The notes under the pieces are model-generated. The model made no database searches, had not been told where the DNA came from, and saw only the letters and a program-made list of their open reading frames with translations. 64,000 nt of DNA from Escherichia phage BF17, in sequence record MW822008.1, one strand, 5' to 3'. Position numbers and translations under genes: made by a program. Shown here in pieces: positions 20,522 through 28,373 of the stretch (positions are counted from its first letter, which is position 1; each line of letters begins with the position of its first letter).

Positions 20522-20962
20522 ATGGAAGATATTAATGATTTACGACACGTAATGGACTTTATCGGAAGTACTGAAGAAGATAATTCATATGATGAAGTAC
20601 TATTAACTTTTATTGAAAATAGTTTGTTTTTAAGTTCTGCTGCACATAACTGGCACTTACAATGTCATTTTTATACAAAGCATTTACAATTAGATGAACT
20701 ATATAAAGAATTACCAGAATATGTAGACGCATTTGTTGAAGGTATCATGAATAATCGTGGTGCTTTGCAAGTTGGGACTGGTAATAGTTATCGTTTTACA
20801 CCAATTGAAGATTGTGTACCAATTCTTGAAGAATATGTTGAGCAATGCAGAGCAATTCATGATATGCTTGAAGAATCGGGTGATTACGGCAGTGTAAACA
20901 CATTAGAAGATATTATGAGTTTTGTTGAAGGAACACTTTACAAACTTAAAGTTTTACAATAA
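20522..20962 (+). CDS. hypothetical protein (146 aa, acidic)
   Basis: ORF track; GGAGAG RBS upstream. Confidence 0.5.
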   Translation: MEDINDLRHVMDFIGSTEEDNSYDEVLLTFIENSLFLSSAAHNWHLQCHFYTKHLQLDELYKELPEYVDAFVEGIMNNRGALQVGTGNSYRFTPIEDCVPILEEYVEQCRAIHDMLEESGDYGSVNTLEDIMSFVEGTLYKLKVLQ

Positions 20963-26466: not shown

Positions 26467-26877
26467 ATGATTGAAATGGAAGGAACTCTGGTGTATGATC
26501 CAGATCGTGGCACTATGAAAAAGAAGAAGGACTTCTGGTTAGTACTACAACTTCCATTGCAGTTGGTTCGATACTACCAGTACTTCATCAGAACTAACTT
26601 ACATATTGATATTAAAGACCCACAATGGGGAGCACATGTCAGTATCGTTCGTGGTGAAGTGCCACCAAATCCAGAGTACTGGAAAAAGTACGATGGAATG
26701 AAAGTTAAGATTAAGTTCGATCCTTTCATCGAAGAAGTAAAAGACAATAAGAAACCTGGGTCATTCTTTATCATAGAGTTTGAAGATGATTTCATTGCAC
26801 AAATTCGTGATGAACTTGGTTTAGCATCTAAATATTTCAAATATCACATCACCATTGGTAGAACATACTACGATTAG
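26467..26877 (+). CDS. hypothetical protein (136 aa)
   Basis: ORF track. Confidence 0.5.
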   Translation: MIEMEGTLVYDPDRGTMKKKKDFWLVLQLPLQLVRYYQYFIRTNLHIDIKDPQWGAHVSIVRGEVPPNPEYWKKYDGMKVKIKFDPFIEEVKDNKKPGSFFIIEFEDDFIAQIRDELGLASKYFKYHITIGRTYYD

Positions 26878-27044
26878 TGTGGATATTTGGTAAATAGGTC
26901 TTGATATAACTAAAAAGTATGCTATACTACTTAAATGTTCCAAAGAACAACTGAGTACTGTAGAAAGTCCAATGAGGCTTTTGCAAATGGCCTCTTTGCC
27001 CTCTTTGTGATTGCTCATTGTTAACAACCAACAAAGGAGGCGTT

Positions 27045-27971
27045 TTGAAAAAAGCGAAAAAAGCACTGAAAACTAAAATTGCCATAGGCGTGTTAGTTTC
27101 ATCAGCCCTATTCGCTGCGATTGGATTTTATGGTTTTTCTCAAAGTGATCGTGCATCATCATTAGACGAAAGTCAGGTGCATAATTTAAAACCACAAGTT
27201 ACGCAAATTCAAAAGCAGGAACTACCACAGGTATCAGTACCAAAAGCAGTTCCAAGCAGCGAGAAACATTATACGGTTCAACCTGGAGATAGTTATTATT
27301 CTATTGCACAGAAATTTAAACCTAAAAATGTACAGATTGAAGATTATGTCATTTTGTTGAAGAACATCAACTTAAATGCAACTCTTCATACTTCTCAGGG
27401 TATCTTTATCCCAACAAAAGAGGATTTGAAGAACGTATTGTTACCAGATGTGACTGTACTGTTTGATTATAAAGATCCAGAAATTGTCAATCACATCAAA
27501 GAAGCTGAAGGTTCTATTGAATTTCAGTCCAAGAACAAACGACGTTTACTTGGTGGGAAAGTTGGAGTTCCTTTCCACAATTCTAAATTTCATCCCTATA
27601 AGGACATGAAAGGTAATTATACAATTGGTTATGGGCATTATTTGGGTAAGAAAGATTCTGATGCAATGAAGTACAGAAACGGGATTACCAAAGCACAGGC
27701 CAACAAACTTTTAATGCAAGATATGAAAAGGACTTACGAGGACTTTACACTATTGATGCAGAAGAAAGATGCAGTTAATCTGACAAAAGAACAGCAGCGT
27801 ATCCTGTTTGAAATGTCATACACAATGGGCGTTGATAAGTTGGCAACATTTAACAAACTATGGAAAAGTGTTAAAATGGATAACCCTAAGAAATTCAAGA
27901 AAGAAATCATGAATTCCTTGTGGTATCGCCAAGTTACAAACAGAGCGGATTTGTTGTTAAGCTCACTCTAA
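27045..27971 (+). CDS. T4-type lysozyme (GH24-like) with N-terminal membrane anchor and LysM domain
   Basis: TM segment IAIGVLVSSALFAAIGFYGF; LysM-like YTVQPGDSYYSIAQKF; C-terminal YKDMKGNYTIGYGHYL parallels T4 lysozyme YKDTEGYYTIGIGHLL, with candidate catalytic Glu in EAEGS upstream. Start taken as TTG 27045 after AAAGGAGG (ORF track 27018, also TTG). Confidence 0.6.
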   Translation: MKKAKKALKTKIAIGVLVSSALFAAIGFYGFSQSDRASSLDESQVHNLKPQVTQIQKQELPQVSVPKAVPSSEKHYTVQPGDSYYSIAQKFKPKNVQIEDYVILLKNINLNATLHTSQGIFIPTKEDLKNVLLPDVTVLFDYKDPEIVNHIKEAEGSIEFQSKNKRRLLGGKVGVPFHNSKFHPYKDMKGNYTIGYGHYLGKKDSDAMKYRNGITKAQANKLLMQDMKRTYEDFTLLMQKKDAVNLTKEQQRILFEMSYTMGVDKLATFNKLWKSVKMDNPKKFKKEIMNSLWYRQVTNRADLLLSSL

Positions 27972-27986
27972 AAAGGTAGGTAAATT

Positions 27987-28319
27987 ATGCTAAATCTAGT
28001 TATCCAAGGTAATGTTGATATTACTCCAGCAATCAATGACGCAATTCATGCTGAAGCAAATGCACTAACGAAGTTTAGTGATTCTTCAGTACTGCATATT
28101 GGTGTTCATGTGAAGAAAGAGCATAAGAATCAATATTTCGTAACTTTAACATCAGGCGGTAAGAGTGTTACAGCCGATGATGCAGATTTATACAAAGCAA
28201 TTGGTGATTCATTTGAAAAAATGGAAACTGTCTTAGGTAAAGACAAAAGCATCAAATTGTATCGCCGTAACCACCCCGAACATCCAGTTCAAGAAGACTT
28301 GACTGAAGACGAAGAGTAA
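27987..28319 (+). CDS. ribosome hibernation factor homolog (HPF/RaiA/YfiA family)
   Basis: LVIQGNVDITPAINDAIHAE...VHVKKEH...ADDADLYKAIGDSFEKME parallels E. coli HPF/RaiA (NITG.NVEITPAL...VEK..H...DMYAAIDGLIDKL). Confidence 0.55.
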   Translation: MLNLVIQGNVDITPAINDAIHAEANALTKFSDSSVLHIGVHVKKEHKNQYFVTLTSGGKSVTADDADLYKAIGDSFEKMETVLGKDKSIKLYRRNHPEHPVQEDLTEDEE

Positions 28320-28330
28320 GATATAATAAA

Positions 28331-28358
28331 GGGACAGAGATTATTCTGTCCCTTTTCT
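28331..28358 (+). terminator. intrinsic terminator
   Basis: Perfect hairpin GGGACAGA-gattat-TCTGTCCC followed by TTTTCTT. Confidence 0.7.
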
Positions 28359-28373
28359 TATGGAGTTTTAATT

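Follow-up and report, generated by a model that had tools for sequence, protein, structure and literature searches.

A gene of the HPF/RaiA hibernation-factor family in jumbo coliphages of the genus Asteriusvirus

The gene at 27987-28319 of the window, by which we mean the whole 64,000-nucleotide stretch of Escherichia phage BF17 (MW822008.1), encodes a 110-residue protein that almost certainly belongs to the HPF/RaiA (Ribosomal_S30AE, PF02482) family. By megablast the source phage is an Asteriusvirus jumbo coliphage of the ~350-380 kb group, the region sharing 97% identity with vB_Ec-M-J and 86-89% with PBECO4 and 121Q; the phage origin attributed to the gene in an earlier sequence-only reading of the window therefore stands. 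Phages that carry a ribosome-silencing factor of their own raise the question of whether they silence, protect or re-awaken the ribosomes of the host, and the present lineage offers a tractable E. coli system in which to ask it.

The gene and its family assignment are already known from public annotation and the literature. Asteriusvirus orthologues occupy the same slot in 121Q (gp533, YP_009102120.1), PBECO4 (L7TII8), vB_Ec-M-J (EcMJ_265) and Sharanji (WNN14706.1), are 75-99% identical and show no material difference from the protein described here. Their annotations read variously 'HPF/RaiA family ribosome-associated protein' (the RefSeq name of the 121Q and PBECO4 proteins), 'ribosomal subunit interface protein' (the UniProt name of the PBECO4 protein), 'sigma 54 modulation protein/S30EA' and 'ribosome-associated inhibitor A', and the paper describing the Sharanji genome counts its orthologue as a translation factor; an IF3 homologue has also been reported in that phage. 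Outside the genus, PF02482 proteins were reported in rV5-like coliphages and in the Cronobacter jumbo phage GAP32 (Mizuno et al., 2019). The rV5 homologue was present in cell extracts but missing from ribosomes washed with salt, and it left 100S formation unchanged (Mizuno et al., 2019). Because the orthologues were already annotated and phage HPF was reported in 2019, the finding is not new. What is added here is the old vertical inheritance of the gene, the loss of half of the basic residues that typically contact rRNA, and a promoter overlap that accounts for part of the conservation of the C-terminal tail.

The rV5 protein is the only phage HPF that has been tested experimentally, and its lineage differs from that of the Asteriusvirus gene. 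While the rV5-like and GAP32 homologues are likewise phage-encoded PF02482 proteins of similar size (105-111 aa), the rV5-type proteins cluster with gammaproteobacterial HPF, and both the rV5 and the GAP32 lineages are distinct from the one studied here. The GAP32 protein (K4F6Q6) is nevertheless a structural match to the Asteriusvirus protein (22% identity, E = 3e-7). The HPF/RaiA family is also represented in the Xanthomonas jumbo phage XaC1.

The gene and the elements upstream of it are arranged as follows.

26901-26928, plus strand: candidate sigma-70-like promoter, TTGATA-16-TATACT with TG (10/12 in a consensus scan, a pattern match)
27045-27971, plus strand: LysM + phage-lysozyme gene (Pfam Phage_lysozyme 2.4e-11, LysM 1.4e-4)
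27974-27981, plus strand: Shine-Dalgarno-like element AGGTAGGT, 5 nt 5' of the ATG of the HPF-like gene
27987-28319, plus strand: HPF/RaiA-family (Ribosomal_S30AE) gene, 110 aa, with a folded core of about residues 1-89 and a disordered tail (90-110) ending DLTEDEE

The open reading frame, which starts with ATG, is a genuine gene. GGAGG/GAGGT elements equivalent to AGGTAGGT precede it in 8/8 lineages, and it is under purifying selection, with pairwise dN/dS values of 0.17-0.27 at dS of 0.44-1.8 among five Asteriusvirus orthologues. The three motifs on which the sequence-only reading had based its proposal are all present in the product (NVDITPAI at residues 9-16, VHVKKEH at 40-46 and ADDADLYKAIG at 63-73), and the placement that it gave, directly behind a lysozyme gene, is likewise correct: the gene starts 15 nt past the lysozyme stop codon (27969-27971), and the upstream product carries both LysM and Phage_lysozyme domains. 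Since no terminator-like hairpin lies between them, the lysozyme and HPF-like genes are probably co-transcribed on one transcript. The promoter candidate at 26901-26928 falls in the 167-nt gap 5' of the lysozyme gene, and it is possible that it drives the two as a transcription unit. The lysozyme start is placed at TTG 27045, with AAAGGAGG before it, in agreement with the 927-nt annotation in vB_Ec-M-J and 121Q; the longer mechanical ORF begins at TTG 27018 (27018-27971). The lysozyme product has a basic, hydrophobic N-terminus followed by the LysM and lysozyme domains, and its PHROG profile matches include both endolysin and tail-lysozyme families.

Assignment of the 110-residue protein to the HPF/RaiA family, the central claim of the sequence-only reading, holds at the level of both profile and fold. 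The protein matches the Pfam profile PF02482 over positions 5-84 of 88 with 41 bits (E = 3.2e-10) against a gathering score of 23.7 bits, and the same match is carried by 12/12 full-length relatives, though not by a truncated 74-aa copy. A second Pfam domain was not found in the protein. The more stringent NCBIfam equivalog cutoffs are not reached, the scores being 32.2 against 40.9 bits for TIGR00741 (HPF/YfiA) and 18.8 against 125 bits for NF007780 (HPF). Sequence searches of the PDB gave significant matches that are all HPF, YfiA/RaiA or pY, whether the query was the protein by itself or a profile built from 13 orthologues.

The AlphaFold2 model (mean pLDDT 76) predicts four β-strands (residues 2-8, 36-46, 49-56 and 59-65) and two helices (14-30 and 68-85), followed by a disordered segment (90-110). 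The order of these elements is exactly that of the HPF/RaiA fold. In a Foldseek comparison of the model with the PDB the top 36 chains are all hibernation factors (HPF, RaiA or pY) before the first unrelated protein is encountered, with RaiA (8rd8_D, 1e-6) and V. cholerae HPF (4hei, TM 0.76) as examples. The predicted structure is thus consistent with the HPF fold that had been expected of the product.

Within the family the predicted architecture is that of RaiA/YfiA, with a single S30AE domain and a disordered, acidic C-terminal extension of ~20 residues. E. coli RaiA/YfiA (protein Y) has the same fold and the same arrangement of one S30AE domain with a ~20-residue tail and an acidic end, and is of similar length (113 aa, ending EEVEEE, compared with 110 aa, ending DLTEDEE); the likeness of the tails is one of composition and architecture only. 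The E. coli short HPF (YhbH) shares the fold but is tail-less (95 aa) and acts with RMF to form 100S particles, while the phage protein carries the 20-residue extension. Comparisons with the two E. coli factors, whose reference sequences were verified against PDB chains, do not agree on which is closer. BLASTP aligns the phage protein with YfiA (27% identity over 81 residues, E = 7e-5) and finds no similarity to HPF, whereas in the profile search HPF scores above YfiA (29.9 against 23.5 bits) and is the better-scoring E. coli factor. The RaiA subtype thus rests on architecture and not on phylogeny.

The third class, the long HPF of Firmicutes, Thermus and other bacteria (~180-190 aa), has an N-terminal domain homologous to the phage protein and accounts for several of the best PDB sequence matches, but additionally contains a C-terminal dimerisation domain that the phage protein lacks, its residues 90-110 being predicted to be disordered. 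With no dimerisation domain and a disordered tail, self-sufficient 100S formation by the phage protein would be unexpected, and the formation of 100S dimers is not favoured on the model. On the ribosome the tail of bacterial YfiA extends in the direction of the RMF site, with no order in its final ~12 residues (2025 structural preprint). By analogy the phage tail would point towards the RMF site.

The surface through which the bacterial factors contact rRNA is only partly retained. The rRNA-contacting residues common to E. coli HPF and YfiA are K80, R83, K87 and K91, of which Arg83 is the single essential arginine and contacts m4C1402 (2025 structural preprint). When the phage clade was aligned with the two E. 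coli factors and 46 diverse representatives, ten columns proved typically basic, Lys or Arg accounting for 55% or more of the residues in the reference set. Five of the ten are kept by the phage protein (K29, K78, K85, K87 and R94), and all five are invariant in the clade; the other five are lost (R17 to N, K23 to E, K26 to A, R83 to T81 and K91 to I89). Relative to E. coli YfiA, equivalents of K80, K87 and R95/R96 are kept, whereas R17, R23, K26, R83 and K91 have no basic equivalents. No variation is seen across the phage clade at the positions corresponding to K80, K87 and K89, residues through which bacterial factors contact 16S rRNA, nor in the D-L-Y-x-A-I motif. Also invariant is a VHVKKEHK patch on the hairpin, which is not common to the bacterial factors. 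Overall the phage protein is acidic (net charge -7, pI 5.3), compared with net charges of -1 and -2 for the E. coli factors (YfiA, -2). Ribosome-contact positions, taken from an incomplete list in the text of one preprint, show no extra conservation within the clade (11/20 compared with 35/71 other positions, p = 0.8).

Comparison of genomes argues that the gene is an old, vertically inherited component of jumbo phages and not a recent capture from the host. When the orthologue profile was run in full against 1.84 billion representative proteins, only 59 matches reached E <= 0.001. The nearest relatives outside the genus (~105 residues, ~32% identical) are found in Salmonella phages Munch, 7t3 and SE_PL, in Klebsiella phage fENko-Kae01 and on metagenomic contigs. 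In the window the conserved neighbours of the lysozyme and HPF-like genes include the following.

26467-26877: 2H-phosphoesterase-like (2H-SAK) gene (Pfam match under the cutoff)
29960-31075: CCA-adding tRNA nucleotidyltransferase
31182-31595: Nudix gene
31585-31833: glutaredoxin gene
32415-32891: macro-domain gene (Pfam match under the cutoff)

The order of 2H-SAK, lysozyme, S30AE, variable small ORFs, CCA-adding enzyme, Nudix, glutaredoxin and gp13-like neck protein is kept, and this 2H-SAK-to-neck arrangement recurs in the genomes of the ~32% identical relatives and in Erwinia phage Hallingskeid. The syntenic fENko-Kae01 orthologue was detected by mass spectrometry of phage preparations (6 spectra), which establishes its translation. 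The same preparation also yielded thymidine kinase, RNA ligase and the CCA-adding enzyme, so the detection is no proof of packaging in the virion; the main text of the phAPEC6 virion paper makes no mention of the protein.

That the ORF was acquired from the host in recent times, as an auxiliary or moron gene, or else is spurious, is a reading that we reject as having almost no chance of being correct. E. coli does possess two paralogues of the HPF/RaiA family, yet BLASTP finds nothing to E. coli HPF and merely 27% identity to YfiA, and the closest relatives are jumbo-phage proteins at the same genomic slot. The dN/dS of ~0.2, the conserved ribosome-binding site and terminator and the detection of a syntenic orthologue by mass spectrometry stand against it as well.

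Several more distant or aberrant copies were set aside. In Salmonella phages SD-15_S21 and SD-1_S14, whose genomes are 20-40 kb shorter than those of relatives, the HPF-like gene encodes 74 aa or fewer. Gene decay in SD-1, SD-2, SD-6 and SD-15, to which truncated copies found by tblastn might point, was rejected because the lysozyme gene is split too, into several short ORFs, making sequencing or assembly indels likelier; the truncated copies come from what are likely indel-rich assemblies and are thus not used as evidence of dispensability. A 1605-aa protein from outside the window (P0014) matched positions 45-82 of the phage HPF profile with E = 1e-31, but consists of ~29 near-identical repeats of ~53 residues, is probably a tandem-repeat or assembly oddity and was treated as a repeat artefact. 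A further candidate (P0019) was rejected as a GAP32 orthologue, there being no close match to any phage record, and a survey of IMG/VR for further relatives recovered only 121Q itself.

The 3' end of the gene is overlaid by two transcription signals.

28299-28327, plus strand: sigma-70-like promoter, TTGACT-17-TATAAT (11/12 in the consensus scan)
28328-28359, plus strand: intrinsic-terminator hairpin with an 11-bp stem, a 6-nt loop and arms AAAGGGACAGA/TCTGTCCCTTT (28328-28355), then TTTTCTT

The sequence-only reading had assigned the gene a terminator of its own, and a GC-rich hairpin with a T-run is indeed found at the same place, directly past the stop codon, in 8/8 lineages. The stem sequences differ (GGGACAGA in most Asteriusvirus, GGAAGCC in EJP2, GGGCAGCC in Erwinia phage Hallingskeid and GGACATTCC in a metagenomic relative). 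That the arms have changed and yet remain complementary at a fixed position is good evidence for a functional plus-strand terminator and supports the view that the element is real. The consensus scanner called the 28328-28355 hairpin on the minus strand only, owing to its tail rule.

The promoter reaches into the coding sequence. Its -35 box (28299-28304) coincides with the codons of Leu105-Thr106, while its -10 box (28322-28327) follows closely on the stop codon and abuts the terminator stem. The arrangement TTGACT/TTGACA-17-TATAAT, or a near match to it, is present in 7/8 lineages. In phage A4 the -35 box has been lost and the Leu replaced by Val, and in the P0016 lineage the tail has no Leu-Thr and a TTGACA-17-TATCCT promoter is entirely intergenic. 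Conservation in the disordered tail is highest at DLTEDEE, but because the Leu-Thr codons form the conserved -35 box, conservation of these two residues is confounded and probably reflects constraint at the level of the DNA. In the 5 lineages with the promoter overlap Leu105 is encoded by TTG alone, whereas 25/33 other invariant residues use more than one codon; given the small numbers this is suggestive of a promoter constraint. An interpretation of the tail as a purely protein-level linear motif is weakened by the identity of TTG ACA/ACT with the conserved -35 box. The tail still ends in acidic residues in the lineage with the intergenic promoter, so that we ascribe this acidity alone to the protein.

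From the position of the -10 box we infer a start site ~7 nt downstream (~28334), inside the 5' arm of the hairpin. Transcripts from the embedded promoter would accordingly lack a complete stem, while those arriving from upstream would terminate. A similar promoter-abutting-terminator layout is seen at 16722-16783, where TTGACA-17-TATAAT (12/12) is followed after 1 nt by AGAGAACTTC/GGAGTTCTCT + T8, and a weaker case occurs at 18573 (18540-18604). In all, 3/23 plus-strand hairpin + T-run sites show the layout, against a shifted-control mean of 0.27. A T4-type late promoter for the gene was considered and rejected: a search of both strands of the 64 kb finds TATAAATA a single time, away from the gene, whereas shuffled sequences lead one to expect 8.3 +/- 2.8 occurrences. 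The motif appears depleted in the window rather than used.

Turning to function, we give a slightly better than even chance to the reading, drawn by analogy with the bacterial factors, that the phage protein binds the decoding channel of the 30S subunit. It would dock as RaiA does in the channel between the head and body of the host 30S, using the retained α2 basic stripe (K78, K85, K87, R93 and R94) together with the β-sheet, and would occlude the positions of A- and P-site tRNA and of mRNA on vacant ribosomes. Ribosomes would thereby be held as inactive, protected 70S monomers and not as 100S dimers. With the α1 basic stripe gone, along with the residues corresponding to Arg83 and Lys91, binding is predicted to be weaker, more reversible or otherwise altered relative to that of the host factors. 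Ribosome binding as such is plausible, and manipulation of host translation by the protein is a further step that we infer. Against ribosome binding stand the sub-cutoff TIGR00741 score, the five lost basic columns, the charge of -7, the lack of extra conservation at contact positions and the result for the rV5 homologue of a different lineage. Several of these features bear on a reading that we consider quite improbable, namely that the HPF fold has been kept while ribosome binding has been lost, the protein now engaging some other RNA or protein partner through the VHVKKEHK hairpin and the acidic tail. Half of the typical basic positions are gone, the Arg83 equivalent among them; the protein is acidic overall; the invariant VHVKKEHK is absent from the bacterial factors; the contact positions show no extra conservation; and the rV5 homologue was not ribosome-associated. 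However, K78, K85 and K87 of α2 and the D-L-Y-x-A-I motif are still invariant and no search points to an alternative partner. The YfiA of A. baumannii, moreover, is also substantially different in sequence while its ribosomal interaction pattern is unchanged.

Two other readings retain an action at the ribosome but alter its purpose. The phage protein may be a competitor of hibernation that, by weak and reversible occupation or perturbation of the HPF/RaiA/RMF sites, prevents the host factors from trapping ribosomes as 100S or RaiA-70S particles, in which case the ribosomes of slow-growing or stationary hosts would remain recruitable for phage mRNAs. The idea was proposed for viral HPF by Mizuno et al. 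(2019), and the weakened basic surface is compatible with a low-affinity, readily displaced binder; a YfiA-type tail heads for the RMF site in the bacterial factor. The gene is also preceded by a sigma-70-like promoter and by no T4-type late motif, which would fit early expression, but the promoter assignment is a pattern match only, and a search for literature on Asteriusvirus transcriptomes or expression timing found none. A weak binder would, moreover, be a poor rival to abundant host factors, and we regard this reading as unlikely. Lower still, and very unlikely in our estimation, is a role as a shield that covers the decoding centre and the 3' end of 16S rRNA against nucleases activated by infection, with neighbouring genes repairing or detoxifying RNA damage. 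E. coli RMF, HPF and RaiA block the entry of ribonucleases into the ribosome, according to one report (PMC7913689), which makes shielding variants reasonable. The conserved neighbours include the 2H-phosphoesterase-like, CCA-adding enzyme, Nudix and macro-domain genes, and two related lineages encode an RNA ligase a few kb upstream. The neighbourhood is not a dedicated island, though, as it also holds lysozyme, thymidine kinase, neck and tail genes; the 2H-SAK and macro matches in the window fall under the Pfam cutoffs, and the gene order may simply be inherited.

Binding in the 30S decoding channel remains the reading that we prefer. A wider conjecture, which we offer as doubtful, is that the jumbo-phage HPF clade represents a re-tuned hibernation factor, a low-affinity shield or competitor that would keep ribosomes from RMF/HPF/RaiA hibernation or guard the decoding centre against nucleases triggered by infection. 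It would be expressed early from a host-type promoter, and its conserved C-terminal Leu-Thr would at the same time supply the -35 box of a promoter that starts inside the gene's own terminator stem and so escapes termination.

Some further features of the surroundings may be recorded. The conserved neighbours of the HPF-like gene have a flavour of RNA-end repair and de-ADP-ribosylation, and the 64-kb window contains no tRNA genes. Small ORFs separate the HPF-like gene from the CCA-adding enzyme (28374-29958 in the window), their number varying between lineages from 0 in L004 and 2 in L002 to 5 here and 7 in Hallingskeid. Two of those in the window, at 29002-29415 and 29402-29824, overlap and are related to each other as tandem paralogues (43% identity over 42 aa, E = 5e-9). 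Finally, ~7 kb upstream of the HPF-like gene lies a second starvation-themed gene (20522-20962), which encodes a 146-aa product with a DUF5856 match (1.9e-28) and a weak ferritin-like match, and whose orthologues in 121Q and vB_Ec-M-J bear the annotation 'starvation-inducible transcriptional regulator / DNA-binding protein'.
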